In this document: positions 5,890 through 33,325 of the stretch, one piece after another
Layout: every line of letters begins with the position of its first letter
Numbering within the stretch: position 1 is the first letter of the stretch
Origin: an uncultured virus (IMG/VR IMGVR_UViG_2061766007_000680)
Taxonomy: Duplodnaviria; Heunggongvirae; Uroviricota; Caudoviricetes
Virus record (IMG/VR): IMGVR_UViG_2061766007_000680
Reading direction: 5' to 3' (one strand)
Length of the DNA: 33,617 nt
Position numbers and translations under genes: made by a program
The notes under the pieces: generated by a model
What the model saw: the letters and a program-made list of their open reading frames with translations, nothing else
What the model was told of the DNA's origin: nothing
Databases searched by the model: none

Positions 5890-6032
5890 AGTATCTGAAT
5901 TTCAATTACGTTGCAAAAGTAGTAATTTTATTTTATATATAAAAATTTTAAAGAAAAAAAGTAATTATTTACTCCAAAATTTTTTTAATTCAATTATTTT
6001 CTTTTATTTGGCCATATAGGTGAGTAAATGGT

Positions 6033-6064
6033 AAAAAAAATGCGGGCAGACATTGCCACCCGCA
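6033..6064 (-). terminator. intrinsic terminator (GGCAG-family hairpin)
   Basis: TGCGGGCAGACATTGCCACCCGCA plus A8. Confidence 0.8.
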
Positions 6065-6089
6065 CCCAACTAAACAATTACCACTATGG

Positions 6090-6956
6090 TTACTCCGCCT
6101 TAGAGTAGGCGTTTTTCTTAATGTCGTCGAGGATTTCTGTGATAGTCATATCCTGGTTCAATTGTTCGAGAACCTTTCTAAGGCTAATCTCCGCCTCGAA
6201 CTTACCGTCAGGATTATTATACTGTTCAATATATTTAAACAGTGTACGCAGACCGAACTTGATGTTCTTACTGTCTTTGAAGATAATTGTACGGCTGTCT
6301 ATATCCAGGTTCTTCAGAGAAATCTTATTCGGGTCAGTTCCCTCATCAGACAGTTTCTTCTGAGCCTTAATAATCTCCTTGTATACAACATCCTCATTGT
6401 GATTGTTTGCCTGGAGCATTTTACGTACATCTACAGCGGTGATTACGCCGTCACGTATCAGAGCCTGGAGTTCTGGCTTCAACTCCAGTAACTGCAACCA
6501 GTAGGAAACCATGCCTGGATTTTTACCCAGTTTCCTGGCAATCTCAGATTTAGTTAGACCGCACTGGTCTTGTAACTTACGAGCTAACAGTCCCCACTCA
6601 TATTCATTGAAATTTTTACCCTCGTTACGAAGAGCTTGCTGTATCAATAGTTCCTCTTCTGTACAGCTCTTGGATAGGAACAACGCTGGAATACGCGCAA
6701 TCTCAGAACCCTCCTCAATGAGTTTCATCACAGCCCTGTAACGGCGTTCACCGTCAATCAGACGATACTTTTCCTCACCGTTTTCATCTTTGAATGCCTG
6801 TACAGATACTGGGTTCAGAACGCCCTGCTCTTTAATCTGACGAGCTAGTTCATCCAAGTCGCCGTAGTTACAACGAGAGTTAAAACCTTTTGTTACAACA
6901 ATGTTTCTTGGGTCTATCTTAAAGATATCCGTTTTTGTAGTCTTGTTATTTGCCAT
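6090..6956 (-). CDS. parB: ParB/RepB/Spo0J-family protein (ParB/Srx N-terminal domain plus HTH)
   Basis: LDELARQIKEQGVLNPVSV, YRLIDGERRYRA arginine patch, QALRN, HTH GLTKSEIARKLGKNPGMVSYWLQLL. Confidence 0.9.
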   Translation of the reverse strand: MANNKTTKTDIFKIDPRNIVVTKGFNSRCNYGDLDELARQIKEQGVLNPVSVQAFKDENGEEKYRLIDGERRYRAVMKLIEEGSEIARIPALFLSKSCTEEELLIQQALRNEGKNFNEYEWGLLARKLQDQCGLTKSEIARKLGKNPGMVSYWLQLLELKPELQALIRDGVITAVDVRKMLQANNHNEDVVYKEIIKAQKKLSDEGTDPNKISLKNLDIDSRTIIFKDSKNIKFGLRTLFKYIEQYNNPDGKFEAEISLRKVLEQLNQDMTITEILDDIKKNAYSKAE

Positions 6957-7821
6957 AGTGATTATTTTTATATTTTTTATTTAATTCTTCTTGACGTTGA
7001 TTATTTTTCATCTCATAATATTCTGGATAGTAGAAACCTTTGTGGTCATCTTTATCCTGGAACTGTCCAAAGTTTGAATGTTTGTTCAGGAACTTCACGA
7101 GTTTCATATCCTCAATTGAGTACCATACTGCTTTTGTACTGTCGTCTTCTACGTTCAGATACTCTACACCAGTTTCATAACGAGGCCATCTATTATCTCC
7201 ACAGTTAATTACTGGACGAGCTTTGACATACTTACGGAACCTGAAAGCGATGTATTTAATAATCATCTTATACAGTATTCCTACAATATGTGCCTCCCAG
7301 AAATTTTCTACTGGCTTCTGAATATCATAGTACCAGATTTCTCCAAACAGCCATTTCAGGAAGCCCTGACTGGTTTCTGACAGTCCATACTCTGCGATAC
7401 GACGATTATGTTTCAGGCGTAGAAGAGTGTCCATTTCCCTGAATACTGTGAAATCAACAGAGCAATAACTGTGCTGGTTCTTCTTGGTTACTACCAAAGG
7501 AAGTGTATCTGGTTCCTCGCCGTGTTTTACTGTGGATACATTGGAACGTGACGGCTTGAATTTATCAATCCAGTCAATCTTATCTCCGAAGAACTGTACG
7601 GTATATACTTTCTTTTCCGTGTCTTTAATAATCCACAGTCCGAACTTCCAGTACGGTATTTCTTTTATTTTGAAATGTACAACAGAGTTCTGTCCCAGGT
7701 CGAAAAGGAAATACCCATTACCAACTTGTACATCAGTAACAGTGAATCCATGTTCTTTCAGACACTGAAAGCACGCATCTTTAATTTTAGTCTTAGATAG
7801 TTTTCCTATTTTTAATGGCAT
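6946..7821 (-). CDS. hypothetical protein
   Basis: 291 aa, overlaps the parB start by 11 nt. Confidence 0.85.
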   Translation of the reverse strand: MPLKIGKLSKTKIKDACFQCLKEHGFTVTDVQVGNGYFLFDLGQNSVVHFKIKEIPYWKFGLWIIKDTEKKVYTVQFFGDKIDWIDKFKPSRSNVSTVKHGEEPDTLPLVVTKKNQHSYCSVDFTVFREMDTLLRLKHNRRIAEYGLSETSQGFLKWLFGEIWYYDIQKPVENFWEAHIVGILYKMIIKYIAFRFRKYVKARPVINCGDNRWPRYETGVEYLNVEDDSTKAVWYSIEDMKLVKFLNKHSNFGQFQDKDDHKGFYYPEYYEMKNNQRQEELNKKYKNNHYGK

Positions 7822-7840
7822 AATATTAATTGCTGTTAAT

Positions 7841-7862
7841 TATAGACCCAAATGAGTCTATA
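7841..7862. repeat. 22-bp palindromic motif, copy 3
   Basis: TATAGACCCAAATGAGTCTATA, the most symmetric copy. Confidence 0.9.
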
Positions 7863-7870
7863 TCTTTTTA

Positions 7871-8143
7871 CTATACCCTGATTTTAATAGTTAGTCCTTT
7901 TGCCTCACTATTTTTTGGCTCCACCTTTGGCTTTGGGTTGTTAGTGTCAAAGATTACATTACCGAGTTGGTCAATTACAAATATCTTGTATTGGAAACGA
8001 TTCCGTAACATTGTAATTATATTATTAACCTCATCCTCTTTAAATTGAAAGAGTTTAACACTAGTTGTCGAATAACCAAAATTATCACATGTGCTAACGT
8101 ATCTTGGGTTATCAACCGTTCCTAATCCTACACAATACATCAT
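7871..8143 (-). CDS. hypothetical protein
   Basis: 90 aa behind promoter 8172; ends TAG TAA. Confidence 0.8.
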   Translation of the reverse strand: MMYCVGLGTVDNPRYVSTCDNFGYSTTSVKLFQFKEDEVNNIITMLRNRFQYKIFVIDQLGNVIFDTNNPKPKVEPKNSEAKGLTIKIRV

Positions 8144-8223
8144 AAGTTTAATTCAATTTTTAAATCCGACTGCAAAGATACAAAAAATATTTTAAATGTA
8201 AAAATTTTAGAGAGATAAAATGT

Positions 8224-8260
8224 AAAAAAATTATGCGTGAGGGCTTTTACACCCCCACGC
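8224..8260 (-). terminator. intrinsic terminator
   Basis: GCGTGAGGG...CCCCCACGC stem with nearby A7. Confidence 0.65.
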
Positions 8261-8267
8261 CTTGCGA

Positions 8268-9035
8268 TTACCAACTCATTATGTTGTACACTACCTCTCC
8301 GTCTTTCCAATCTTCGAGGAGTTTCGTGAACTGCGCTTTGCAGTCTGCAATGTCCCCAAAGTAGTAGGCGTTGTAGTCTGTGCTACCGAAGAAGAAGCCT
8401 GCTTGTGTCGGCAGCAACTCTTCCGCCAAGTCTACCAATTCCTGCGGTATGGCAGCGTTCTCCTTATCTACACGCTCACGCTCTTTTTGCTGCTCCTCTT
8501 GCGTGAGGTCATAGAAATTGCTCTTGCAGTAGTACTTATCGTATGGACGACCGCTCTCGTCAAGTACACCTGCCTCCTTAGCAGCAGCCTCGATTTGCGT
8601 GCAGATATCTACCAATTCCTGCACCTTATCTTTGCTCACGATGCAGCACTCGTCTACGAGGTCATCAGCGAAGAAGCGATAGACGAAGTTAACCTTACGG
8701 AAGTATACATCGCTCTGCTTGTACATACTCTTTTTTAGGCGTTGGATTTCGTCCAATATGTCGCAGTTGAATGTCTCAGGTACGAGTTTTTCCCAATACC
8801 ATTTGTAATCAGGCATAAGGCTCTTCACGTACTCCCTGAGTTCGTTGATTACTGCTGCACGCTCCTCTGCGTTCTCGTCAGCAATTGCCTGCTTGATACG
8901 CTTAGCAAACTTGTTAGCCACTTTCGTGAATGCTTTCTTGAATTGCATTTCACGGTCTTTTTCCAACTCATCTACTGAGTTTGGATTTACACCTTTACTA
9001 GGTTTTACCTTGTCGAAGTAAATATCTAAGCCGAT
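8268..9035 (-). CDS. conserved phage hypothetical protein (MGLD.../GFFFGS family), probable ATC start
   Basis: Frame continues upstream of the track start to ATC-GGC-TTA-GAT-ATT-TAC-TTC (xGLDIYF); motifs FRKVN, LLPTQAGFFFGSTDY, terminal SW. Confidence 0.8.
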   Translation of the reverse strand: MGLDIYFDKVKPSKGVNPNSVDELEKDREMQFKKAFTKVANKFAKRIKQAIADENAEERAAVINELREYVKSLMPDYKWYWEKLVPETFNCDILDEIQRLKKSMYKQSDVYFRKVNFVYRFFADDLVDECCIVSKDKVQELVDICTQIEAAAKEAGVLDESGRPYDKYYCKSNFYDLTQEEQQKERERVDKENAAIPQELVDLAEELLPTQAGFFFGSTDYNAYYFGDIADCKAQFTKLLEDWKDGEVVYNIMSW

Positions 9036-9181
9036 AATTGTATCACGTTGTTTTCAACGTGCCTCCGTTTTTAATAGTTAATAAATATGTTATTTTGAAT
9101 TACAATGCAAAATTAATACAATTTTTTGATATATACAAATTTTTGGGCATTTTTTTTATTTTTTTCCTTATTATTATATAT

Positions 9182-9203
9182 TATAGACCCAAACGAGTAC
9201 CTA
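9182..9203. repeat. 22-bp palindromic motif, copy 4
   Basis: TATAGACCCAAACGAGTACCTA, 1 nt past the stop of 9205..9876. Confidence 0.8.
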
Positions 9204-9204
9204 A

Positions 9205-9876
9205 TTAGTGGTTAGGTTCGTTCTCCCATTTATCAATCAGGCTGTCCCAATCTGTCAGGTTAAATTCGTCATCTCGATAACAGGTGTTGCCTAAGAAGCC
9301 AAACAGGTTCTTCTCGAACACAGCGTCATCAATGTCTGTATCGTCGCCGTCCTGTTCGATACGGAACTTTGCTGCTTCAACGAATTTCTTTGCGAGGAAA
9401 TAGTCCAACTCCTCCTCAATATCCATTTCATTGAGATAGCTATCTACACCCTGCCAATCTACAATCTCCAATGCTGCATCTGTAATGTGGTCGATGAACT
9501 CATAATATAAGTCCAGCATTGCCTGGCTGTTCAAAATTACTTTTGTGCCGAAGCAGCCGAACTCATAGTTTTCAATATGACCTTTTACACAACTGCGTGC
9601 GCTGTCCCACGTTTCTACATATCCCCAATCAATCATTTTAGAGATAGTGTCTATAGTGATAATCAAATTTCCCTCCTTGTCTTTGATGAGTGTTTTGTCC
9701 TCACCAAGAAGGAAATTATTACCAAACGCACTCTCTGTAATATAACAGATACCTTTACGTTCCTTTATGGCTTTTTCGCTTTTATAGCAATAGCCATTGT
9801 TGGTAGAACCTGCCGAGAATACTGCTCCGCCCTCTATCGGGGTGCGAGAACCAACTTCGTAATACTTCTCGTCCAT
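9205..9876 (-). CDS. hypothetical acidic protein
   Basis: 223-aa ORF. Confidence 0.85.
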   Translation of the reverse strand: MDEKYYEVGSRTPIEGGAVFSAGSTNNGYCYKSEKAIKERKGICYITESAFGNNFLLGEDKTLIKDKEGNLIITIDTISKMIDWGYVETWDSARSCVKGHIENYEFGCFGTKVILNSQAMLDLYYEFIDHITDAALEIVDWQGVDSYLNEMDIEEELDYFLAKKFVEAAKFRIEQDGDDTDIDDAVFEKNLFGFLGNTCYRDDEFNLTDWDSLIDKWENEPNH

Positions 9877-9887
9877 AGTTTTTTTTA

Positions 9888-10058
9888 TTATTTTACCATT
9901 ATACCTAATTCAACGTGCTTGTCGTGGTCTTGCCACACGTTAACGCCTTTGTTGAAACCATATTTAATATGGTAATTGATTGCGTTACGCATTACACGTA
10001 AAAGCGTTTTGTCGTCCACTCTGCCCCAATTGGCAATGTCAATAGTGATTTGTGTCAT
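9888..10058 (-). CDS. small hypothetical protein (56 aa)
   Basis: Restarted at MTQITIDI; ATGA overlap with the upstream gene. Confidence 0.75.
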   Translation of the reverse strand: MTQITIDIANWGRVDDKTLLRVMRNAINYHIKYGFNKGVNVWQDHDKHVELGIMVK

Positions 10059-10207
10059 ACCAAGTCCTCCTCTACAAAGATTGCACATTTCTCAATCTGA
10101 GCCAACTCATTGGCTACAACTGCTGCTTGCGCTGCGCTAAGATTGCATTTTACAATTATAGGTGTTTCCCCTAATCGTTTAAGTGTTACGTGATACGTTC
10201 GTTTCAT
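10055..10207 (-). CDS. small hypothetical protein (50 aa)
   Basis: Restarted at MKRTYHV, downstream of promoter 10234. Confidence 0.75.
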   Translation of the reverse strand: MKRTYHVTLKRLGETPIIVKCNLSAAQAAVVANELAQIEKCAIFVEEDLV

Positions 10208-10364
10208 ATAGTTAGTTGTTTTTGAATTACGTTGCAAAGATAGTAAAAAAAAACCATACATACAAATTTTAGGGCAAAAAAATGTAAATTATTTTTAGTG
10301 AGTGATATATAGTCAAATAAAATAAAATTTATGGTTTATACAAATTTTGAGGAAATAAAAACAC

Positions 10365-10397
10365 AAAAAAACACGAGCAGCATTTCTGCCACCCGTG
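10365..10397 (-). terminator. intrinsic terminator (GGCAGAAATGC family)
   Basis: CACGAGCAGCATTTCTGCCACCCGTG plus A7. Confidence 0.8.
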
Positions 10398-10427
10398 CCA
10401 ACTAAACTATAAACTATGAACAAAACC

Positions 10428-10653
10428 CTACCAATTCAATGGAAACCAATAAAAGTTCTCCGTGTCGATACCGTCCTCGTTGAGATACCTAAATCAAGTC
10501 TCTACGGTATAAATCTCCGTTATGAACTAACACTCGTTAATCATCTTCATCTTCGCACTCTATTTCAGGATACCAATTATCCATATCTTCCTCGTTCAGT
10601 CTTGTAGTTCCATACTCAAAAACCTCACGTTCAAAATAAGAAAAATTTGCCAT
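10428..10653 (-). pseudogene. probable degraded gene (38-aa ORF 10537..10653 plus coding-like remnant)
   Basis: MANFSYFEREVF...CEDEDD*RVLVHNGDLYRRDLI, then a one-base shift to RYLNEDGIDTENFYWFPLNW*. Confidence 0.45.
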
Positions 10654-10654
10654 A

Positions 10655-10921
10655 TTACAAAACCTCTTTTTCTTCTATTTTCCAATCAATGTGATTGTAA
10701 AGATATTCACCCATTTCGTAAATAGACTTTGTGTTTTCCTCATCACATTCCGTCATAAGTCTGTCTGGGTCGCACCATTGTTCCCAATCGTTAAGTTCGG
10801 CAATAAACTCTGTTGCCATTGTTTTCTTTGCCTTTTCGAGGCTACCAAAAACTCTAACGTCTTCTGCGTTCTCTCCGCGTGTTGCACTTGTACGCAACAA
10901 TGTATAAACTTTTTTAGCCAT
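10655..10921 (-). CDS. hypothetical protein
   Basis: 88 aa behind promoter 10947. Confidence 0.85.
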   Translation of the reverse strand: MAKKVYTLLRTSATRGENAEDVRVFGSLEKAKKTMATEFIAELNDWEQWCDPDRLMTECDEENTKSIYEMGEYLYNHIDWKIEEKEVL

Positions 10922-10955: not shown

Positions 10956-11672
10956 CTATAAATTATCTATATATAAAAATTTTGGGGGAATAAAATGGCG
11001 GGTNNNNNNNNNNNNNNNNNNNNNNNNNNNNNNNNNNNNNNNNNNNNTTTCGTTTAATGTTTCATTAAGAAAATGGTCAAAGTTATCTTTGTATTTTTCC
11101 GATTTGTGTTTTGTTTCATTTATGATATTATTGAAACTACTGCAACTTTCATTGAAATAGTCATAAGGAATACTAAACTTATTATTTTTGTCAATAATAG
11201 TGTAAAAGTCAGTATCATCTTTCTTATTTTCGTAATAGTCTTTTCTTTCGATAAAAGCATAATCATTTTGATTAAATTCATAATAGTCAAAATGTACCAC
11301 ACCATTGTCTTTTATACCATAAATAAAACTTTCTTGTTGAAAAAGTTTAGCAATATGTTTTACCTCATCAAGCAAGATATTAAATATAATCTTACTATTT
11401 TCGGTATTTCCATATTTTCCTCTTACTGGTTGCCAAGCATAATTACCTTGTTTAAGATAATTAACAAGATTTTTGTTAGCAGTACGATTTTGGTTATTGC
11501 TACCCATTTCACCCATTGGGTTTTCACCTGTAATAATGCAAAATGTCTTTACATTATCTTCAACCCCCCTTATACTATTGATAGCACTTTGCTTTAATTG
11601 TCCTTTTTTGTTGCGAGAAATCTCGTCAAGTCTATTCATTAAATCTAATCCTTTCTCTAATTGTTCGTTCAT
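10956..11672 (-). CDS. DUF3293-like phage protein; true C-terminus hidden by N gap
   Basis: Motifs FCIITGENPMG, VRGKYGNTENS, IAKLFQQESFIYG. Confidence 0.7.
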   Translation of the reverse strand: MNEQLEKGLDLMNRLDEISRNKKGQLKQSAINSIRGVEDNVKTFCIITGENPMGEMGSNNQNRTANKNLVNYLKQGNYAWQPVRGKYGNTENSKIIFNILLDEVKHIAKLFQQESFIYGIKDNGVVHFDYYEFNQNDYAFIERKDYYENKKDDTDFYTIIDKNNKFSIPYDYFNESCSSFNNIINETKHKSEKYKDNFDHFLNETLNEXXXXXXXXXXXXXXXTRHFIPPKFLYIDNL

Positions 11673-11836
11673 AATCTTATTTAGTTTTTAATATATAAAT
11701 ACTTGAAAACTTTGTGCAAAGATAAAAGTTTTTCTACAAATATACAAATTTTAGGGAAAAAATCATTCATCATACTCGAAAATTTTTATATTCCGATTTT
11801 TTTCTTTTATTTGTGCATATAGAGATGAGGAGGACG

Positions 11837-11867
11837 AAAAAAAACAGGCGGCATCTCTGCCACCTGT
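11837..11867 (-). terminator. intrinsic terminator (GGCAGAGATGC family)
   Basis: ACAGGCGGCATCTCTGCCACCTGT plus A run. Confidence 0.85.
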
Positions 11868-11886
11868 CCCAACTAAAAACCAACTA

Positions 11887-14010: not shown

Positions 14011-14742
14011 TTAGTGTGGGTAAACAGCCGTTTTGCTACCTCTCCGCATACACTTTCGGCACATTGCACAAGTAACACCTGTTTCGTGCCCATTTTTGTC
14101 TATAGCAGGACAATGTGCAAAGGGCGAATTTTTTTCCTCATCGTATTCGAAAATGTTGCATTTTGCAAAACACTCATCTTTCAAATACTCATCAAGGTTG
14201 TCTTTCCACATTGAAAGATTGATAATAAAGTTTTGGGGAACACTATCGCCATTTGCGGACAACTCATCAAACCATTGTTTCAAAAGGTCAAAAGCCTTTG
14301 TATAAATATAGAAAACAATTTCTTCATTATCTTTGCAGATTTGCGCATATAGTTTTAACTGCTCGATACTCTCCAACTCGCCAGACGTGTGAAATCGGAA
14401 ATAACGTACAATGTTTTTCTTGCAGTATTCGTTTATCTCCGCACGCAGTTTCTGCGGGTCATTACGCAGAATTACGGTGTTTTTTGCGTAAGCAGGTATT
14501 ACGCTATTGTGGTGTTGAACTGAAAAACGCACAGCATAGCACTTGTTTTTGCACAACTCACAAAGACTACCGCACGTACCTACTATATTAGTAAGCATAC
14601 GACCGCTTTTGAGTGTCAAAGGCTCATTGCCTGCTAAAGTGTTGAACCCTGGAATGTTACCGAGTTTTTGATTACCTTTGGAAATTGAAACGTGAAGATT
14701 ACCCTCATCGTAAATCGGATAAATTGGATTTTTCTTGTTCAT
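14011..14742 (-). CDS. phage Gene-product-88 (GP88)-like Cys-rich, radical-SAM-like protein
   Basis: SKGNQKLG, CGSLCELCKNKCYA, YFRFHTSGE, FYIYTK, CPA...TCAMCRKC, terminal H; restarted at MNKKNP. Confidence 0.8.
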   Translation of the reverse strand: MNKKNPIYPIYDEGNLHVSISKGNQKLGNIPGFNTLAGNEPLTLKSGRMLTNIVGTCGSLCELCKNKCYAVRFSVQHHNSVIPAYAKNTVILRNDPQKLRAEINEYCKKNIVRYFRFHTSGELESIEQLKLYAQICKDNEEIVFYIYTKAFDLLKQWFDELSANGDSVPQNFIINLSMWKDNLDEYLKDECFAKCNIFEYDEEKNSPFAHCPAIDKNGHETGVTCAMCRKCMRRGSKTAVYPH

Positions 14743-14888
14743 ATAATTAGTTGTTTTAGTTTTACTGCACAAAAGTACTACAATTATTTGGCTTATACAA
14801 ATTTTGGAGATAAAAAACAATTTATTTCCTTAAAATTTTTATATACCAGATTTTTTCTTTTATTTGTCTATATAGAACCGAATTGTAT

Positions 14889-14921
14889 AAAAAAATACGG
14901 GCAGCATTTCTGCCACCCGCA
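14889..14921 (-). terminator. intrinsic terminator (GGCAGAAATGC family)
   Basis: TACGGGCAGCATTTCTGCCACCCGCA plus A7. Confidence 0.85.
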
Positions 14922-14941
14922 CCAAAACACATTACTAACCA

Positions 14942-18153: not shown

Positions 18154-18175
18154 TATATACTCGTTTGAGTCTATT
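18154..18175. repeat. 22-bp palindromic motif, copy 6
   Basis: TATATACTCGTTTGAGTCTATT, overlaps the stop of 18174..18434. Confidence 0.8.
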
Positions 18176-18767: not shown

Positions 18768-18914
18768 AGTTATACTGATTTTGATTTCTGATACAAAGGT
18801 ACTGCTTTTTTTGCAATTATACAAATTTTGGGGAAATAAAATGTAAAAAAAGTTTAGCGGGTAGTATATGGACAAATAAAAGAAAAAACTTCGGTTATAA
18901 AAATTTTAGAGCAT

Positions 18915-18946
18915 AAAAAATGCTGGCTGCATTTCTGCAACCAGCA
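18915..18946 (-). terminator. intrinsic terminator (GCAGAAATGC family)
   Basis: TGCTGGCTGCATTTCTGCAACCAGCA plus A6. Confidence 0.85.
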
Positions 18947-18967
18947 CCCACTAAACACTATGAAAAC

Positions 18968-19684: not shown

Positions 19685-19826
19685 AATCTTAATTTTTATG
19701 CTTAATGTTTCACATTACAAAAGTACTGCTTTTATTTGACTTATAAAAATTTTGGGGAGAAAAAAATAATCCCCTATCTATATGCCCTAAAATAAAAAAC
19801 TCCTTGAATTAAAAGAATTTTGCAGC

Positions 19827-19872
19827 AAAAAAAATAACACCAACCTACATTTTTTTTGTAAGTCGGTGTTAC
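19827..19872 (-). terminator. intrinsic terminator
   Basis: TAACACCAACCTACA...TGTAAGTCGGTGTTA plus A8. Confidence 0.75.
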
Positions 19873-19892
19873 CCAAATCAAATATACTATGA

Positions 19893-21109: not shown

Positions 21110-21275
21110 AATACTTTTTGTTTTATTGATTTCTACCGCAAAAGTACTACTTTTTCTTGGTATATAAAATTTTTGAAGAAAAAAAATCTATTACTCTCTA
21201 AAATTTTTTTAATTACTAAAAAATGTTTTATTTGTCTATAAGATCCCAGAAAGGCAAAAAAAGATCCACATAAAT

Positions 21276-21312
21276 AAAAAAAATACAACCTCGTTTCACA
21301 ACGAAGTTGTAC
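21276..21312 (-). terminator. intrinsic terminator
   Basis: TACAACCTCGTT-TCAC-AACGAAGTTGTA plus A8. Confidence 0.8.
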
Positions 21313-21342
21313 CAATAAAACCAAACCTAAACTATGAACCAA

Positions 21343-21884: not shown

Positions 21885-21906
21885 TATATACTCATTTGTG
21901 TCTATT
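21885..21906. repeat. 22-bp palindromic motif, copy 7
   Basis: TATATACTCATTTGTGTCTATT, overlaps the stop of 21905..22657. Confidence 0.75.
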
Positions 21907-22657: not shown

Positions 22658-22802
22658 AGTAGTTTTTGTTTTAATTTCTACTGCAAAGATACAATAAATT
22701 ATCTGCATATAAAAATTTTAGAGAAAAAAATGCAATCACTCTCCAAAATTTGTATATATGGGGAAAATTATTTTATTTGTTCATATAGGTAGAGAAAGGC
22801 AG

Positions 22803-22831
22803 AAAAAAATGACCGAACTTAATCGGTCACT
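22803..22831 (-). terminator. intrinsic terminator
   Basis: TGACCGA-ACTTAA-TCGGTCA plus A7. Confidence 0.8.
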
Positions 22832-24685: not shown

Positions 24686-24856
24686 AGTTTTTTTAATTCT
24701 ACCGCAAAGATACAATAAATTATTTAGATATATAAATTTTGGGGAATAATTCATTTAAAAAAAAGTAATCAACATACCATTATTCATTTGAAAAAGTGTA
24801 GGTGCATATATATAGACAAATAAAAGAAAAAAAATGAATTATACAAATTTTAAAGC

Positions 24857-24890
24857 AAAAAAAATGCAGATAGCATTTCTGCTACCTGCA
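24857..24890 (-). terminator. intrinsic terminator (GCAGAAATGC family)
   Basis: TGCAGATAGCATTTCTGCTACCTGCA plus A8. Confidence 0.85.
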
Positions 24891-24917
24891 CCCACTAAAC
24901 ACTATACACTATGAACA

Positions 24918-26305: not shown

Positions 26306-26476
26306 TTATATACCCATTTGAGTATATTTATGTTTTTTCTTTCTTGTATATTTCTTTTTATTGCGATAAACATTGCTATGGCATATCGGCTTACCAAATA
26401 AGGCAATCTCTATCTCCCTACTTTGTTTCCTTGCCGCTTTCAGTACTGCCAATATGTCATTTGCTTTACTACTCAT
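26306..26476 (-). CDS. small basic protein (56 aa) with an ArfA-like C-terminus
   Basis: MSNKANDILAVLKAARKQSREIEIALFGKPICHSNVYRNKKKYTRKKKHKYTQMGI*; start overlaps the upstream stop. Confidence 0.7.
   Translation of the reverse strand: MSSKANDILAVLKAARKQSREIEIALFGKPICHSNVYRNKKKYTRKKKHKYTQMGI
26307..26328. repeat. 22-bp palindromic motif, copy 8
   Basis: TATATACCCATTTGAGTATATT, forms the last codons and stop of 26306..26476. Confidence 0.8.
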
Positions 26477-27162: not shown

Positions 27163-27308
27163 TGTGCTATTGTTTTAACTTCTACGGCAAAAGTACTACA
27201 TTTATTTGAAATATACAAATTTTAGAGAAAAAAAGTGTAATCCATCCCTAAAATTTTTATATATGGAAAATTAGTTTATATTTGGCTATATAGATGCGAA
27301 AAGGCAAC

Positions 27309-27346
27309 AAAAAACGGCAATATCTTTATTTATTGCCGCATTTTTG
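27309..27346. terminator. intrinsic terminator, possibly bidirectional
   Basis: A6-CGGCAATA...TATTGCCG-CA-T6. Confidence 0.75.
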
Positions 27347-27350
27347 ATTT

Positions 27351-28132: not shown

Positions 28133-28273
28133 AGTTTTATTTGATTTGTACTGCAAAAGTACTACATTTTTCCCAATTATACAAATTTTGGAGAAAAAAA
28201 ATGCAATTACAACCTAAAATTTTTATATCTCACGGAATATGTTATATTTGGCTATATACTACACAAAAGGCAC

Positions 28274-28301
28274 AAAAAAAATAGCCGAACTTAATCGGCT
28301 A
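28274..28301 (-). terminator. intrinsic terminator
   Basis: TAGCCGA-ACTTAA-TCGGCTA plus A8; same inner stem-loop as 22810. Confidence 0.8.
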
Positions 28302-28305
28302 CCTT

Positions 28306-28536
28306 TTAGTAAATCATTTGCTTAACCAATCGGTTGGCAATCTTGTATGCTGCGTGCAGTTTCTCCGTTCCTGTCAATCCTCGTAATTCTTCTGCGTGAA
28401 TTACAAAGTTGTCAATCTCATACTGCAAATTCTCATCTTCGTATATTTGGCAGAAATACCCACCTTTGTTTATTCCGTTGTCATCGCAGAAAGATACATA
28501 TACTTTCTTGCGGTCATTTATTTTTACTGATAGCAT
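28306..28536 (-). CDS. hypothetical protein
   Basis: 76 aa, NKGGYFCQIY. Confidence 0.8.
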   Translation of the reverse strand: MLSVKINDRKKVYVSFCDDNGINKGGYFCQIYEDENLQYEIDNFVIHAEELRGLTGTEKLHAAYKIANRLVKQMIY

Positions 28537-28558
28537 ATTATTCCTTTCTTTAATAATT

Positions 28559-28580
28559 TATATACCCATTTGAGGCTATA
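28559..28580. repeat. 22-bp palindromic motif, copy 9
   Basis: TATATACCCATTTGAGGCTATA, 2 nt past the stop of 28583..29128. Confidence 0.8.
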
Positions 28581-28582
28581 TA

Positions 28583-29128
28583 TTACCAAACCATTGCTGC
28601 TCGTTTGGAATAGTGACTATCGTTCCAAATCTTTTCCAAAATCTGATACTCTTTCAAATCTGCGTATCGTGTGCGGTATTGAAAGTTCCAATTGTCATAG
28701 AGTTGGAAACCTTTCTCGGTCACAATCTTAATGTAGAACAAATTAGTTCCGTCATGGTGACTGCTCTTTACCTCAACCAAACCACGCGGCAGTTGCTTAA
28801 CTCGGATGTGGTCGCAGTCTTTAATGCAAGCGGTCAGTGCTTCCACGATATTGTCGAACATTTTTGCACACTCAAAGTTGCCCTGCCAAGTTCCTGCGGT
28901 GCCGCTTACTATAACTCGGTTGTCACCGAATATCTCCTCATCTTCAAGATAGTTCTTGCAGTTGTCGAAATCTTCCGACTCCATATCTGCAATAGACTGC
29001 CATACATCATCATCGGTGATTTTGCAATCTGGGTTGCACTCTTGCAATGCTGCCTTTTCTTCCTCAAAATCGTATCCGTCATAATTGTCGAATAAGATAA
29101 TGTCTTGCTTTTTAGTTTTCTTTGCCAT
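28583..29128 (-). CDS. conserved phage hypothetical protein (GTWQG...HHDGTN type)
   Basis: Restarted at MAKKTKK behind promoter 29154. Confidence 0.85.
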   Translation of the reverse strand: MAKKTKKQDIILFDNYDGYDFEEEKAALQECNPDCKITDDDVWQSIADMESEDFDNCKNYLEDEEIFGDNRVIVSGTAGTWQGNFECAKMFDNIVEALTACIKDCDHIRVKQLPRGLVEVKSSHHDGTNLFYIKIVTEKGFQLYDNWNFQYRTRYADLKEYQILEKIWNDSHYSKRAAMVW

Positions 29129-29242
29129 AGTTCTATTTGATTTTGTTTCTGCTGCAAAGGTAATATAAAAAAATGATATATACAAATTTTGAGGAGAAAA
29201 TGTTAATTTTATTTGTTTTGCAATATAGAGTTAGCAAAACAT

Positions 29243-29527
29243 TTATTCGAGGAAAATCCACTTGTTAGCAAGTTCACTTATTTGGTCGTTATTCGCTACT
29301 TCTTCATATGGTAGTTCAACTGACACAAAATCTTCTACATCATAGATATTGTCATTGTTTGGCTCAATATCATCGTCTATGATTTCAACTTTGTGAACCA
29401 TTTCGTACTCATCCAACCAAATATGCAGGCGAGGATTGGTATATGCTTTCTTGTTAGCGATGTATTCTTCTACTGCATCATATATTGCGGTTTCTAACGC
29501 ACGTAATGCTTGAAGGTAATTACTCAT
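29243..29527 (-). CDS. hypothetical protein, paralog of 23791..24072
   Basis: 94 aa; IYDAV...ISELANKWIFLE. Confidence 0.85.
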   Translation of the reverse strand: MSNYLQALRALETAIYDAVEEYIANKKAYTNPRLHIWLDEYEMVHKVEIIDDDIEPNNDNIYDVEDFVSVELPYEEVANNDQISELANKWIFLE

Positions 29528-29660
29528 ATCCGTATTGTTTTTAATGTTTCTGCTGCAAAAGTACTAAAAAGATTTCAATTATACAAATTTTGGAGAAAAA
29601 AATGAAAAAATTTTTATTATATATAATATATAGAATATAACGCAATAGACCCTATTTATT

Positions 29661-29732
29661 TCAATTCTAAGACACTTTATCATCAAATACGATAACTTTA
29701 TCATCTAAACAAAAATATGCGCTTAAAACGAA
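29661..29732. repeat. symmetric non-coding element
   Basis: Central GATAA-CT-TTATC, direct repeat ACTTTATCATC (29674, 29695), symmetric TAAG/CTTA outer arms. Confidence 0.5.
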
Positions 29733-29884
29733 GATTTTGAAAAAAATGTTGTTTTTCGTCACTTTTTTAACTTTATTGACAATTTACAATGGTAAAAAAG
29801 ATCCAGAAACACACAGAAAAAGATCTTATAGACAAATAAAAGAAAAATCTCCAATTATACAAATTTTGGGGAACAAATATACAC

Positions 29885-29914
29885 AAAAAAACGCCAACTC
29901 ATAAAGAGTCGGTG
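29885..29914 (-). terminator. intrinsic terminator
   Basis: CGCCAACTC-ATAAA-GAGTCGGTG plus A7. Confidence 0.75.
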
Positions 29915-30290
29915 CTAAAAATATATATTATATGAAAGAATTATAACTTATAAATTACTTGCGCATAGTTTTGTCCTCCGTTTAATGGTTCCACAATACA
30001 CTATAAAAATTTCCGAATAATTAATTAACTAATATGTTAGTGGGTCTGCGCCCTAATACGATTTGTAGCCATAGCCTATTCATTTTTATTTGTGCCCTAT
30101 GGTAGCCGCGCCGAGTGTAATTCGCCAACCTCTGACGCGATTTAACAACTACCTAAATGTTGCGGGCGATAATGCCAAAATTTCTATTTTCCTAATTGGA
30201 CAATTTATAACTATTTATTTTTATATTATTTATACCCTAATTGGGCGGTGGTTTATTGTTCTCCATAATTCCGTCTAAATTTTAATTACA
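29885..30290 (-). other. promoter- and terminator-bounded unit of about 400 nt without a standard-code gene
   Basis: Promoter 30293; mini-ORFs MENNKPPPN*, MATNRIRAQTH*, MRK*; an 81-codon frame 30021..30266 broken only by three TAGs. Confidence 0.6.
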
Positions 30291-30347
30291 ATGCAAAAGT
30301 ACTACAAATTTTTGACTTATACAATTTTTGGGGAAGAAAAATGCAAT

Positions 30348-30740
30348 TTATTTATCGTGCACCTCTTTATGGACGCTTTCGGTATGTTTCTCTAACCGAG
30401 CAGTGAGTTCGTCAAGATAAGCGTTGGTCAATTTCACTAACTTGTCGGGCGTTTCAAGTATGTCTTCGTGATTTTCAACATACTGAATTGTCTTGTCAGC
30501 CGCATAAATAATAACCGCATCTTTGGTCGATGGTGTTGCGATACCGATAAGCGCACCAATGATTGCAAAAGGCAATGCACCTTTCAAAATTTTTGTTACT
30601 GCGGCTCTCTCTTTGTCGTCATAGAAAAAGACGCAATAAAGAATTGCGGTAATAAGAATCACGGTGATAGCAAGCCCAAACACTACCCAAGAAAAATTGT
30701 TAATCGCGTCTAAACGCGTGATAAGATAAAATCCGAACAT
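30348..30740 (-). CDS. membrane protein (two TM helices plus helical tail)
   Basis: 130 aa, YLITRLD...PSTKD. Confidence 0.85.
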   Translation of the reverse strand: MFGFYLITRLDAINNFSWVVFGLAITVILITAILYCVFFYDDKERAAVTKILKGALPFAIIGALIGIATPSTKDAVIIYAADKTIQYVENHEDILETPDKLVKLTNAYLDELTARLEKHTESVHKEVHDK

Positions 30741-30822
30741 AACTATTAAGTTTTTTAATTTTACAATGTAAAAGTACTACATTTATTTCAATTATACAAA
30801 TTTTTGGGAATAAAAATGTGAT

Positions 30823-31074
30823 TTATTTTCTTTTCAATGCTTTCTCTATTGTCTTTTCGTACACATTTGCCAAAATTGCTTGTTGTACCTCATATTCAAA
30901 ATCAGCAGTCTGCTTGAAAAAACCTGTGCGTTGAAAGTCCCATATACCAGAATTTTTTGCAATCAGATTGATTTGCTTAATGTGCTCTCGCAGTTCCTTA
31001 AGATTTTTACTTGATAGGTGATTTAACACCCACTCTGAACTGCGCTTTTTTGCTTGCCATAATTCTCTTGCCAT
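30823..31074 (-). CDS. hypothetical protein
   Basis: Restarted at MARELWQ behind promoter 31101. Confidence 0.8.
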   Translation of the reverse strand: MARELWQAKKRSSEWVLNHLSSKNLKELREHIKQINLIAKNSGIWDFQRTGFFKQTADFEYEVQQAILANVYEKTIEKALKRK

Positions 31075-31120
31075 AGTGTTATTTGTTTTTGATTTCTGTT
31101 GCAAAGGTACAACAAAGTTT
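31071..31120. repeat. perfect 50-bp repeat (promoter -7 box, leader and ATG), copy 1
   Basis: Identical to 33568-33617. Confidence 0.95.
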
Positions 31121-31145
31121 TTAATTATACAAATTTTGGGGAAAA

Positions 31146-31472
31146 TTAGTAATTAAAAACACATCTTTTTTTGTTGTAGCATTTCATTAACTCCTTGCTC
31201 ATGTGCTTACGATTTCGGTACGGAATAGTTGCAACGCGTTTGCCTTTCTCAACAACATACACCTTAACATTGGTATATTTGTAGTCGTTTAAGTCGAGGA
31301 TGCAAGCCAATTCCTCTGCACGGAGTTGTGCCTTTCTCTGCGACCGATATGTTTCAATCGGTTCGGGATAGGTAACACGCTGACCATATTTGTACTGAAT
31401 AGGATACCCTGCATACCATTTTACGGGTATATTCTCATAAGATACACTTTCGTAATAAACTTGATACTGCAT
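31146..31472 (-). CDS. hypothetical protein
   Basis: 108 aa. Confidence 0.8.
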   Translation of the reverse strand: MQYQVYYESVSYENIPVKWYAGYPIQYKYGQRVTYPEPIETYRSQRKAQLRAEELACILDLNDYKYTNVKVYVVEKGKRVATIPYRNRKHMSKELMKCYNKKRCVFNY

Positions 31473-31486
31473 AGTTTGTTTTCTTT

Positions 31487-31741
31487 TTAATCACCATAAT
31501 AAGGTTCATTGAATGAATAATCAAATTCATCAATATAGCCAATTCTTCTTTGCCTATTTATTTCCTCATCATATTCCAATTGTTTTACTAACATTTTTTG
31601 CACCTCGTTTGATAATATAAAAGTTGGTATGTTCCACATACACCACTCAATATATTGCGCATCTTTAAGTAACACTTTGCTTATCTTTTCCCCTTTGTGC
31701 TTACCAAAATCTAATATGTCATCTAATCTTAATTCTTTCAT
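31487..31741 (-). CDS. exodeoxyribonuclease-X C-terminal-like (FGKHKG) small protein
   Basis: LDFGKHKGEKISKVLLKDAQYIEWC. Confidence 0.75.
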   Translation of the reverse strand: MKELRLDDILDFGKHKGEKISKVLLKDAQYIEWCMWNIPTFILSNEVQKMLVKQLEYDEEINRQRRIGYIDEFDYSFNEPYYGD

Positions 31742-31879
31742 TTCTCATTGATTCTTGCGCAAAAATAAAACATTTATTTGAATAATAAAAATTTTCAAGC
31801 AAAAAAATAATTTAACCCCTCAAAATTTTTATATACCAAAACTTTTCTTTTATTTGTCCATATATATGCGCAAAGACAC

Positions 31880-31912
31880 AAAAAAACAAGCGACTTTCCC
31901 AAGTCACTTGTC
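31880..31912 (-). terminator. intrinsic terminator
   Basis: ACAAGCGACTT-TCCC-AAGTCACTTGT plus A run. Confidence 0.8.
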
Positions 31913-31974
31913 CCAATTGTCTAACGTCTAAACCTTAACTATGATTTACTTTCGCATAACTAAACCCTTTCTTT

Positions 31975-32319
31975 TTAATTGAACAACTTGTCTGCCATTT
32001 CGCCAATCTTATCAAACGAGCAAGTGTTATTGCTACCACCTCGCCAATCTTCTGCGTGTGCCATTGTACGAATAAGAATATCATCGTACCAATCCCAATA
32101 GCGCACGTCACTCATATGCACATACACGAACTTGCCGCCTTTCTCTAATACCGCTGACCACTCAAAGTGATTGCCCAAAAACTTGTGTATCTTAATACCA
32201 AATTTCCTACATTGTGCCGCCAACTCCTTTTTACATTGACGTTCAAACGTAATGTATTCCATTGTACGATAATAATTGCTTTCAAACTCTTGATTACGAT
32301 AACTTTTTACGCTTGCCAT
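31975..32319 (-). CDS. conserved phage hypothetical protein (SDVRY...LIRT...DWRGGSN type)
   Basis: Restarted at MASVKSY behind promoter 32346. Confidence 0.85.
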   Translation of the reverse strand: MASVKSYRNQEFESNYYRTMEYITFERQCKKELAAQCRKFGIKIHKFLGNHFEWSAVLEKGGKFVYVHMSDVRYWDWYDDILIRTMAHAEDWRGGSNNTCSFDKIGEMADKLFN

Positions 32320-32394
32320 AATGTTTAGTTTTTTAATTTGATACTGCAAAGATACTACTTTTAATCCAAATATAAAAATTTTGGAGAATAATAA

Positions 32395-32655
32395 TTAAAG
32401 TCCAAATTTTTCAATTACTATTCCTACAATCTCATTTACCTTTCGCACATCTGGGTGTATGTTTTTGTAAAAGTTTCTGCTGATGTAGTGGCGGAATTTA
32501 AGTCTTAATTCGTTATCTTCCGTTTCTACTGCAAGACATTGAATCAGTCTTCCTTTATGTGTAATACCAAAATCTGCAATAGACAAAACTCCGCCCATTT
32601 CATTTACAAACTCTTTTACTTTTTTTACACCACTAATATTTAATCTTGTTGCCAT
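32395..32655 (-). CDS. hypothetical protein
   Basis: 86 aa behind promoter 32681. Confidence 0.8.
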   Translation of the reverse strand: MATRLNISGVKKVKEFVNEMGGVLSIADFGITHKGRLIQCLAVETEDNELRLKFRHYISRNFYKNIHPDVRKVNEIVGIVIEKFGL

Positions 32656-32729
32656 AGTTCTATTCTTTATTGTTTCTAATGCAAAAATACTGCTTTTATT
32701 CGGTATATAAAAATTTTAAGGGAATAAAA

Positions 32730-33146
32730 TTATTTACCTATCTCACCAATAACAAAATTATCGTATTTCCTAACATCGGTACCAATTATTCTATTACCAC
32801 TTTTTAAATCGTTTTGCCGTGAATACAACATATCTAACGACTTGAATTTTTCTACGGCAGGATAAGTGTGTACATTTTCAACTCCGTTCTCGCTTACAAC
32901 AGCGTGTCTATCATACGATAGCGTATATTTGAAATACTTGTCTTTGTTTGCTTTTGTTATAATCTCCTTAAACCAACCACCACAATCGGTATCACGAATA
33001 ATAACTTTGCTGACACCATCGTGCATATTGAACATATCAGCACCCATTTGAACCGCACTTGCAGGATGCGTCATCGACATACAATCATAACCATAAAACG
33101 GAACATTGCTTTTGTCATCGGAATATACCTCAATTCTTAATTTCAT
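32730..33146 (-). CDS. hypothetical protein
   Basis: 138 aa behind promoter 33170. Confidence 0.85.
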   Translation of the reverse strand: MKLRIEVYSDDKSNVPFYGYDCMSMTHPASAVQMGADMFNMHDGVSKVIIRDTDCGGWFKEIITKANKDKYFKYTLSYDRHAVVSENGVENVHTYPAVEKFKSLDMLYSRQNDLKSGNRIIGTDVRKYDNFVIGEIGK

Positions 33147-33325
33147 AATTGCTATTTTTTAATTACAATGCAAATGTACTATAATTTTTTCATATATAAA
33201 AATTTTAGAGTAAAAAAATAAAATCACTCCCCAAAATTTTTATATCTCGCAAACTTTGCTATTTTAGGATATATATAGGACTACCTACGACAGCCCCCCC
33301 ATAACCCCCTNNNNNNNNNNTTTAT

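Follow-up and report, generated by a model that had tools for sequence, protein, structure and literature searches.

In an uncultured rumen phage, nearly every strong terminator of the early-gene array has behind it a promoter-like element with no gene of its own, which may point either toward the next gene or back toward the terminator. We analyzed the array in a window comprising the whole 33,617-nt stretch. It contains 47 ORFs, 44 of which have no Pfam family above the curated cutoff.

Two classes of promoter-like element

Class I promoters consist of the box AAAATTTKTATA, N16, and TAnnTTTG. There are 35 in the window, all on the minus strand, and 32 of them are followed, 18 to 60 nt past the -7 box, by the start of an ORF that opens with ATG and encodes 30 aa or more. 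Class II elements carry the same box followed by N15, TWTWTTWG, NNN, and ATATAG. The string box-N15-TWTATTTG has 10 exact matches versus 0.00 expected from 100 dinucleotide-preserving shuffles, and permitting up to two box mismatches added four degenerate copies (5976+, 19821-, 21200+, and 33233+). The resulting 14 copies, nine on the plus strand and five on the minus strand, agree with the count in the first-pass annotation. They are listed below as type S (sense to the genes) or type A (antisense to the genes), each with its intrinsic terminator and the start of the next class I box, which are all on the minus strand.

5914..33206, - strand: class I promoter array (pattern scan; the 35 box starts span 4631 to 33206)
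5976..6019, + strand: class II type A, one box mismatch; terminator of the ParB-like gene 6033..6067 (dG -15.7); class I 5949, 27 nt box to box
8224..8260, - strand: the sole terminator without class II; class I 8208- directly behind its T-run
10305..10348, - strand: class II type S, 16 nt past the T-run of terminator 10364..10399; class I 10270, 78 nt downstream
11779..11822, + strand: class II type A (motif scan); terminator 11837..11870; class I 11752
14832..14875, + strand: class II type A, same orientation at the orthologous G001 junction (14651-); terminator 14889..14923; class I 14805
18864..18907, - strand: class II type S, orthologue G001 9593+ with the same terminator and orientation and a different -7-like box; terminator 18915..18949; class I 18829
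19778..19821, - strand: class II type S, degenerate box, TATTTTAG form; terminator 19827..19874; class I 19753
21200..21243, + strand: class II type A, tail ATAAGATC instead of ATATAG; terminator 21276..21313; class I 21174
22745..22788, + strand: class II type A (motif scan); terminator 22803..22831 (hairpin and T-run scan); class I 22719
24808..24851, - strand: class II type S, orthologue G001 11207+; terminator 24857..24893; class I 24740
27250..27293, + strand: class II type A, canonical TATATTTG; terminator 27309..27339, among the few that are also terminator-like on the + strand; class I 27223
28216..28259, + strand: class II type A, canonical TATATTTG; terminator 28274..28303 (hairpin and T-run scan); class I 28189
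29824..29867, - strand: class II type S, small GATC hairpin and T-run directly after it; terminator 29885..29917; class I 29591, 276 nt off
31822..31865, + strand: class II type A (motif scan); terminator 31880..31914; class I 31795
33233..33276, + strand: class II type A, TATTTTAG form; expected terminator side lost in the N gap at 33311-33320; class I 33206

The two classes were compared with leave-one-out position weight matrices that covered the 38 positions following the shared box and were scored as S_I minus S_II. Scores ranged from +16.8 to +63.7 for the 35 class I sites and from -56.1 to -32.2 for the 14 class II sites. The distribution was bimodal with no intermediates in the window, which excludes the continuum that the first-pass annotation had allowed for. 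We conclude that class II is an element class of its own and not the degenerate tail of class I.

The upstream T-run and CYCY are conserved in class II as in class I, while the class II spacer is one base shorter and its -7 box looser. TTTK and the octamer are separated by 19 nt in class II and by 20 nt in the 35 class I promoters, which places the K of the box at -32 and -33, respectively, if numbering takes the -7 box G as -5. The natural spacing between -33 and -7 elements is 19 to 21. Over the predicted start site, class II carries an invariant G-G-N-Y-ATATAG, from which one window copy (21200+) departs in the tail. Three of these positions lie outside the search pattern and are conserved all the same: the G behind the -7 box, the Y preceding ATATA, and the last G. 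Several copies contain a palindromic core, CTATATAG, within this tail. Beyond ATATAG the sequence is unconserved, and no conserved gene or RNA body was found behind the element, in keeping with the earlier statement that no gene directly follows it. Besides this core, there is a small palindrome of another kind, ACTC-N4-GRGT with TATA on its flanks.

Bacteroidota housekeeping promoters are described as having a -33 TTTG and a -7 TAnnTTTG element, and T-12, A-11, T-8, T-7, T-6, and G-5 are reported as nearly invariant in the Flavobacterium johnsoniae -7 element (PMC6847099, PMC2483708). Class II resembles these sigma-A promoters in its -33 box, in a -7-like octamer ending in G, and in AT-rich turns upstream; AAAATTTKTATA places TTTK at -35 to -32, and among the 14 window copies the K is a G in 4 and a T in 9. 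It differs in having a spacer one base under that of the phage's own 35 promoters, a noncanonical -7 box in 12 of 14 window copies, and the invariant G-G-N-Y-ATATAG over the start site with no gene behind it. Measured against TAnnTTTG, two window copies are perfect and 12 have one mismatch. The A at -11 is absent from 10 of the 14, and the T at -6 is absent from the form carried by the relative. This loss of nearly invariant positions suggests that binding by the housekeeping sigma factor may be weak. Among 97 nonredundant family copies, the box is the canonical TATATTTG in 36, TATTTTAG in 45, TTTATTTG in 11, and another form in 5; most noncanonical copies are one mismatch off. The -7 box without A that had been described earlier, TTTATTTG, is thus a peculiarity of the window phage, and its relatives carry TATATTTG or TATTTTAG. 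The form is uniform in 15 of the 18 contigs with at least two copies.

Association with terminators and inheritance

Terminators were collected from two scans, one of which was a search for a hairpin plus T-run. Thirteen strong intergenic terminators on the minus strand (dG -11.8 to -21.3) are each followed by exactly one class II copy before the next class I promoter, and class II is found at 13 of 14 junctions between a strong terminator and class I versus 0 of 21 promoters without a terminator. When the 35 class I promoters in the window were classified, 12 had a terminator and class II, 1 had only a terminator, 1 had only class II (the copy at the N gap, 33233+), and 21 had neither (Fisher P = 1.9e-7); copy 29867- was left out of this table because the next class I promoter is 276 nt away. 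The scans therefore uphold the first-pass count of 13 of 14 terminators, with the exception at 8224, and the position of the 14th copy beside a gap. These counts link class II, as an element in its own right, to terminators. Read-through is apparently tolerated across the 21 class I promoters without a terminator in front.

A related 121-kb phage contig, G001, follows the same rule, with class II at 17 of 18 terminator junctions versus 1 of 8 promoters without a terminator. All 19 matches of the class II downstream half in G001 lie within the first 31 kb, and the nine class I promoters beyond that region have no class II. The statement that each terminator has exactly one copy holds at the 13 window terminators and fails in G001 at junction 11180-/11207+, where an antisense copy abuts a sense copy in the place occupied by class I in the window, pointing to the shared box as a crossover point. 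Approximately 75 rumen metagenome fragments bear class II in the same two settings, sense and antisense. After removal of near-duplicates, there were 37 sense and 51 antisense copies; the conserved extent is identical in both and ends after ATATAG. The regions between sense class II copies and class I are heterogeneous.

Gene order is heavily shuffled between the window and G001, in blocks of 63 to 85% DNA identity that end in promoter regions, and the class II copy at the array end has decayed in the window and survives in G001. Comparison of orientation at orthologous junctions, which the first-pass annotation had suggested, gave the same orientation at all six junctions that align from the upstream gene through the terminator and class II to class I. 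The upstream gene, its terminator, and the orientation of class II are inherited as a unit, and no flipping was seen between the two genomes. This makes it very improbable that class II is a phase-variable promoter segment flipped by a recombinase: both orientations do occur behind the same terminator hairpin families, but inverted repeats were absent from the contexts of the 14 window copies, and sense and antisense copies have different, fixed neighbors.

In both orientations, the element sits close to the terminator (5 to 21 nt in 13 of 14 window copies and likewise in most family copies). Sense copies begin 5 to 8 nt past the T-run in 32 of 38 copies with a terminator found, and a hairpin plus T-run lies upstream of 34 of 36. 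Antisense copies stand back-to-back with class I and end 12 to 15 nt from the T-run, a gap that is partly the terminator's own distal T-rich stretch, so this apparently fixed distance may be mere tight packing; ATATAG and the A-run are 18 to 21 nt apart in 36 of 43 copies. Box-to-box distances to class I cluster at 66 to 69, 75 to 79, 87 to 90, and 109 to 113 nt for sense copies and at 16, 23 to 27, and 37 to 38 nt for antisense copies. The best periods are 10.8 and 10.7 bp, and none of 2,000 uniform random sets scored as high, a control that ignores shared ancestry. Because the family copies share ancestry, both the distance classes and the periodicity may reflect inherited spacer lengths rather than selected phasing. 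Terminators at antisense copies are one-directional in 39 of 43 cases; the antisense strand has a T-rich tail after the hairpin in 4 of 43. No terminator separates most sense copies from class I, and several sense copies are directly followed by a small hairpin and T-run (window 29867-, G001 7829+, L052, and L126).

Possible functions of class II

The traits of class II fit an orientation-independent boundary function at the level of DNA or polymerase. The boundary element proposed in the first-pass annotation gains from the findings that class II is distinct, tied to terminators, and of the same extent both ways; simple insulation is disfavored by the 21 promoters without a terminator. The trap, roadblock, sigma decoy, protein-loading site, and source of tiny RNAs that the annotation listed are candidate mechanisms. 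Our tentative preference, held with somewhat less than even confidence, is that class II is a docking or secondary-initiation site for the host (Bacteroidota) polymerase that belongs to the terminator and not to a gene. According to the account in PMC6978322, Escherichia coli polymerase remains on DNA after intrinsic termination and begins again at promoter-like sites close by, frequently in the antisense direction; in vivo, these sites are enriched in the vicinity of terminators, and they "might be selected for." At class II, polymerase would be captured or parked right behind its RNA-release point. The terminator T-run would double as the upstream T-tract of class II in the sense setting, and the start site would lie ∼17 to 20 nt from the T-run in the antisense setting. 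A bound or reinitiating polymerase would mark the end of the transcription unit and set up the next class I promoter, with which class II would hold a helical register of ∼10.7 bp. Any RNA made would be incidental, in which case either orientation would serve. The element would travel with the upstream gene and terminator inside promoter/terminator cassettes, which recombination within the shared box may shuffle among related phages. If so, host polymerase would be held or reused at the borders of gene cassettes. Counting against this reading, antisense copies that fire would make unstopped RNA, which looks wasteful. Furthermore, 21 class I promoters work without a class II partner, which indicates that promoters do not generally need insulation or a boost.

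A serious, if doubtful, alternative is that class II copies are ordinary productive promoters whose transcripts matter. RNA from antisense copies would be complementary to the upstream early mRNA at its terminator and 3' end, and the outcome would be OOP-like damping, more rapid decay, or enforced termination through head-on collisions. Sense copies would be tandem second promoters of the next gene. The full promoter architecture, with a canonical -7 box in 36 of 97 copies, and the antisense majority (9 of 14 in the window and 51 versus 37 in the family) are consistent with this. RNA from most sense copies would reach the gene, and antisense RNA would run past one-directional terminators into the upstream gene. 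However, one element of identical conserved extent would have to do two different jobs, the RNA body is unconserved, and the hairpin and T-run behind several sense copies would cut the RNA before class I. Lineage-wide changes at nearly invariant -7 positions also speak against selection for strength.

We consider it unlikely that class II is a functionless relic or hitchhiker of cassette recombination, a duplicated promoter front half spread with terminators and kept uniform by gene conversion. Such an origin could account for the shuffled gene order with block ends in promoter regions, the use of the shared box as a crossover point at G001 11180-/11207+, the decayed array-end copy, and the uniformity of lineage-specific -7-like forms within contigs. 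It does not sit well with the conservation of N15 and G-G-N-Y-ATATAG across at least three lineage forms and 97 nonredundant copies while spacers differ and the terminator hairpins are of at least eight unrelated kinds, with the one-per-terminator rule in two genomes that differ by 15 to 35% in DNA, or with the tight geometry in either orientation. It is quite unlikely that class II is a binding or loading site for a DNA-binding protein other than polymerase, although the array encodes a candidate, a ParB/KorB-like early protein (6090-6956; ParB_N, HTH_ParB, and KorB domains) conserved in G001 at 76% DNA identity. A protein of this kind, acting from many entry points, could silence the early array or switch it, and the orientation of class II would then not matter. 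The palindromic core in the tail and the confinement of class II to the early array agree with this, and the lineage-specific -7-like forms could mirror coevolution with a phage factor. Against it, the whole element is not a dyad, its best-conserved part is a box common to 35 real promoters at promoter spacing, and the ACTC-N4-GRGT palindrome would be a more ordinary operator.

Relation to known systems

The OOP RNA of lambda and the sar RNA of P22 are short antisense RNAs of temperate phages whose promoters, like antisense class II copies, lie just past a gene end and point back. They are single loci with a defined, terminated RNA. Class II, in contrast, occurs in many copies, 39 of 43 antisense copies have no terminator on that strand, and a third to two-fifths of all copies point the other way.

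The earlier view that class II has no described equivalent was too strong, as both its layout and its position have parallels. The PeSL (promoter-early stem-loop) cassettes of T4-type phages are described as repeats that each join a terminator stem-loop to a strong early promoter of the host type, AT rich in its upstream part; they flank small orphan genes, whose order is shuffled by recombination inside the repeats (PMC2839356, PMC4122927). In the window, 35 repeated promoters and 14 terminators surround small orphan genes, and the comparison with G001 points to gene gain, loss, and reordering through recombination within the repeats. The cassettes as described have one promoter, and the words "antisense" and "bidirectional" are absent from PMC2839356. 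The window phage instead inserts a second promoter-like class, in either orientation, between terminator and promoter. Its signals are of the Bacteroidota -33/-7 type, and its likeness to T4-type phages is one of cassette layout.

The secondary initiation sites of E. coli and Bacillus subtilis are promoter-like, lie near intrinsic terminators, often point backward, and differ from ordinary promoters, as class II does; Harden et al. (2020, PMC6978322) proposed that they serve polymerase that has terminated without leaving the DNA. Class II is likewise promoter-like and falls within about 200 nt of an intrinsic terminator. The association reported by Harden et al. is a statistical one, found for 66 of 339 terminators within 500 bp (PMC6978322), whereas class II recurs in a phage as a fixed cassette at 13 of 14 terminators, in both orientations and with a geometry set to the base. 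Neither the description of PeSL cassettes nor that of terminator-proximal sites includes a second element in either orientation.

The probable early array and its two promoter-like classes

Starting at about 3.7 kb, the rest of the window consists of a minus-strand array of roughly 45 small genes, all read in one direction. Three of the 47 ORFs scanned in the window matched Pfam above the curated cut-off.

Pfam matches above the curated cut-off in the window
6090-6956, ParB/KorB-like protein
14011-14742, GP88-like protein
31487-31741, ExoX-like C-terminal motif

Neither tRNA genes nor Rfam families were found in the window, and it had no DNA-level match to GenBank phages. At the protein level, GenBank phages matched only the ParB-like protein (40%, Bacteroides phage) and, weakly, the GP88-like gene. 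Window DNA is present in bovine gut metagenome runs. Bacteroidota promoters are described as having TTTG at -33, TAnnTTTG at -7, and a start site 4 to 5 nt past the -7 element (PMC6847099, PMC2483708), and the promoters of the window are of this type. The array region is probably the early, host-takeover-like part of a phage with a Bacteroidota host. A plus-strand gene block of lower G+C content (0.30-0.32) at 1-3600 (+) converges on the array; the genes scanned there had no Pfam match, and the block contains neither of the elements described below. Two runs of N interrupt the window. One (11004-11047) breaks up the ORF at 10956-11672, and the other (33311-33320) masks the terminator expected beside the class-II copy at 33233+.

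Class I, the early promoter (upstream box, N16, TAnnTTTG), occurs 35 times, on the minus strand only, and an ORF starts 18 to 60 nt downstream at 32 of these sites. Class II carries the same box and a spacer of N15. Its core, box-N15-TWTATTTG, was found 10 times in the window versus 0.00 expected, and allowing up to two box mismatches added four copies. The pattern scan thus reproduced the 14 copies (nine plus, five minus) reported in the first-pass annotation. When leave-one-out position weight matrices were applied to the 38 positions past the shared box, each class-I site scored at least +16.8 bits toward class I and each class-II site at least 32.2 bits toward class II. The two classes do not grade into one another.

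Exactly one class-II copy lies ahead of the next class I at 13 of the 14 strong intergenic gene-strand terminators, as had been claimed. The exception is the terminator at 8260-8224, where class I follows directly with no class II between; the 14th class-II copy adjoins an N gap. Class-I promoters that lack a terminator number 21, and class II is absent from all of them (Fisher p = 1.9e-7). Given this association and the separation of the matrix scores, class II is not a continuum of degenerate class-I copies without a link to terminators, and the original observation therefore stands. We conclude that class II is a real, conserved feature that is not explained by the published descriptions we found.

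Conservation and placement of class II

G001, a related 121-kb IMG/VR contig, shares this system, its genes lying on the plus strand. CheckV puts its completeness at 32%, a value that may point to a very large phage. Direct examination covered about 28 kb of the leading 31.7 kb. G001 has nine sense copies (along the genes) and 10 antisense copies (against them), mostly of the form box-N15-TATTTTAGG-RCATATAG. In the examined part, class II accompanies class I at 17 of the 18 promoters preceded by a terminator and at one of the eight others. The downstream half of class II has 19 matches in all of G001; since it never occurs without the box or beyond the early 31 kb, a late or other promoter class was rejected. 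Class I has 39 matches in G001, nine of which, at 47-115 kb, lack class II, and some of these nine flank tRNA genes. Beyond the early array, class I stands between tRNA-Cys, tRNA-Trp, and tRNA-Met genes (loci L002 and L007, at ~66.5 and ~110.5 kb of G001); the phage therefore carries tRNAs under an early-type promoter.

Metagenome contigs were scanned with a pattern spanning three octamer forms, which yielded 86 loci; eight loci were dropped as AT-rich chance matches (L047, L053, L058, L062, L063, L094, L112, and L120), and the others belong to the family. Together with the window and G001 the total was 110 elements, or 97 (37 sense, 51 antisense, and nine unclassified) once copies exceeding 85% similarity across 150 nt had been merged. 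The class-II pattern had seven isolated matches in 185,579 bacterial and archaeal species genomes, none in the family context. Class II therefore belongs to this group of phages, and an origin as a host promoter class, or in prophages of cultured genomes, was rejected.

In both orientations the conserved stretch is identical: CYCY, the box, T at spacer position 3, an octamer with the consensus T-W-T-W-T-T-W-G, and G-N-Y-ATATA-G. The box, octamer, and ATATA were demanded by the search pattern, but conservation extends to positions outside that pattern: the CYCY flank, the G just past the octamer, the Y, and the final G. With the last G of the -7 octamer set to -5, the box of class I occupies positions -40 to -29 and its K is at -33; class II is shorter by one base, and its predicted start is the T or the second A of ATATAG. 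Conservation ends after ATATAG. A small RNA or peptide product was rejected for this reason; the antisense ORFs after the plus copies are inconsistent, and the regions between sense copies and class I have no common fold. No overall symmetry was found on inspection by eye, and the whole element as a dyad or operator was likewise rejected.

The octamer varies between genomes. The canonical form TATATTTG accounts for 36 of the 97 non-redundant copies, TATTTTAG for 45, and TTTATTTG for 11, 10 of them from the window, and a single form is used in 15 of the 18 contigs with at least two copies. Each non-canonical form violates a position described as nearly invariant in F. johnsoniae promoters, while class I retains TAYNTTTG everywhere. 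Either the octamer is under relaxed constraint and homogenized within genomes, or it is read by a factor that varies between lineages.

Placement relative to the terminator is regular in both orientations. In the nine antisense copies of the window (type A, plus strand), the box lies 26 to 27 nt from the box of the class I behind it and 12 to 15 nt separate ATATAG from the terminator T-run of the upstream gene. The five sense copies (type S, minus strand) begin 5 to 17 nt past the T-run, so that it takes the place of the T-tract that precedes each class-I box; they lie 68 to 111 nt from class I (276 nt at 29867-). Across the family, a hairpin and T-run stand immediately upstream of 34 of the 36 sense copies examined, and the gap from T-run to box is 5 to 8 nt in 32 of the 38 copies, unclassified ones included, for which a terminator was found. 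Among 43 antisense copies, an A-run, which is the terminator's T-run seen on the opposite strand, begins 18 to 21 nt from the start of ATATAG in 36; four more were scored at a shorter A5 just ahead of the long run, and three lack the arrangement. Because many unrelated hairpins stand behind these A-runs, the spacing reflects more than one copied unit, although part of it is the distal T-rich stretch of the terminator itself. A hairpin with a T-rich tail on the class-II strand is present in only four of the 43, so an antisense RNA would not terminate there, and bidirectional terminators yielding tiny RNAs were rejected.

The distances from class II to class I fall into clusters, at 66-69, 75-79, 87-90, 95, and 109-116 nt for sense copies and at 16, 23-27, 37-38, and 57 nt for antisense copies. 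The best periods are 10.8 and 10.7 bp, and none of 2,000 uniform random sets scored as high. Since the copies share ancestry, this periodicity is suggestive of helical register rather than proof of it.

Rearrangement and other elements of the array

Genes shared by the window and G001 are 63 to 85% identical at the DNA level, their order is thoroughly different, and the ends of the shared blocks fall within promoter regions. The alignment indicates that class II travels with the upstream gene and its terminator. Six junctions could be aligned over their whole length, from the upstream gene across its terminator and class II as far as class I, and all six keep their orientation. Two downstream genes are preceded by both a terminator and class II in one phage but lack the two in the other.

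Junctions and gene pairs from the window-G001 alignment
Window terminators 6040, 14895, 18920, 19834, 21283, and 27314, junctions keeping orientation
Window 32382- and G001 3636+, gene pair differing in front terminator and class II
Window 11752- and G001 17793+, gene pair differing in front terminator and class II

Where the window has class I, G001 (11180-/11207+) has an antisense copy directly adjoining a sense copy, so the box itself is a crossover point. One hairpin family is found in both settings, so orientation has changed over longer times.

A lone class II stands past the last terminator of the array in G001 (30213+) and in three other lineages (metagenome loci L077, L083, and L115). 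At the array end of the window, ~3640-3660 (-), a tail resembling GGCTATAT is kept and the box is lost; this looks like a decayed fifteenth copy.

The array contains a third small repeat, a palindromic hairpin, ATA(G/T)ACTC-N4-GRGTATATAA, on the minus strand of the window.

Third-repeat hairpins in the window (minus strand)
near 3625
near 4690
near 9175
near 18170
near 21900
near 26310

The hairpin lies right after stop codons that lack a GC-rich terminator, 15 to 40 nt ahead of class I, and in relatives (L052, L054, L069, L074, L126, and G001 30213) directly after the ATATA of class II. Its role may be that of a weak terminator, an operator, or a processing site. The class I at 4631 drives no ORF but a ~125-nt stretch at 4468-4596 (-), closed by a long-range stem and a T-run. 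This candidate small RNA is conserved in G001 (~29399-29570) with one compensatory pair change; its fold z-score is only -1.5, and it has no Rfam match. Two unusually long noncoding stretches occupy 29600-30330 (-): the class I at 30329 is followed by only a nine-codon ORF, and past the class II at 29867 come a small GATC hairpin, its T-run, and ~230 nt that contain no ORF.

Possible function and relation to known systems

Class II has the shape of a promoter, is distinct and conserved, and is coupled to terminators with tight geometry whichever way it points; it has no conserved product. It probably binds the host holoenzyme, because its upstream recognition part is that of 35 working promoters and its -7 element is canonical in a third of the family. 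Since both orientations are under the same constraints and the downstream sequence is unconserved, the selected property would be binding or initiation beside a terminator rather than an RNA. In E. coli, polymerase is reported to stay on the DNA after intrinsic termination and restart at promoter-like sites close by, frequently antisense. Terminators of E. coli and B. subtilis show enrichment of such sites in their vicinity, and selection on them has been suggested as possible (PMC6978322). Secondary initiation as described there is the closest described phenomenon to class II. On this ground, we tentatively rank first a terminator-coupled polymerase docking or reinitiation site, which has a substantial but less than even chance of being correct. 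The boundary role proposed initially, as a roadblock or insulator, survives as one version of docking; against its insulator form stands the evident tolerance of read-through across class I at 21 junctions. All polymerase versions must contend with the window octamer, which lacks an A at -11. A bolder reading, which we regard as unlikely, makes class II an evolved polymerase-recapture site, a promoter variant selected for this. The adjacent terminator would release the RNA, class II would catch the host polymerase whichever way it faces, and the caught polymerase would be kept on the early array of the phage, helically in register with the promoter that follows. If true, this phage family would be the first natural case of the single-molecule "alternative transcription cycle" embodied in a repeated, conserved genetic module.

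The other readings are less probable. Class II copies may be productive promoters whose antisense or tandem RNAs matter, which is possible but doubtful. A recombination hitchhiker kept uniform through gene conversion is rather improbable, and a site for a phage protein, e.g., a ParB/KorB-like one, a little more so. The comparison of window and G001 junctions showed no sign of an active orientation switch, and an invertible switch is very improbable indeed.

With one element serving in both orientations, this phage family separates an antisense-RNA function from a polymerase-binding function, which backward-only cases cannot do. At ~150 bp, terminator, class II, and class I form a compact natural test bed for asking whether selection for polymerase recycling acts on promoters close to terminators, whether these promoters insulate adjacent units, and whether helical register between adjacent promoters matters in Bacteroidota. 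To our knowledge, few regulatory parts have been characterized in this phylum.

A second, gene-less, terminator-bound promoter class was not found in the published descriptions searched. That phage early regions are assembled from promoter/terminator cassettes is already known, and class II is best seen as a variation on this theme. The PeSL cassettes of T4-type phages are described with the same repeat-bounded reshuffling as that between the window and G001 (PMC2839356, PMC4122927). The words "antisense" and "bidirectional" are absent from the text on PeSL (PMC2839356), whereas class II stands here in either orientation.
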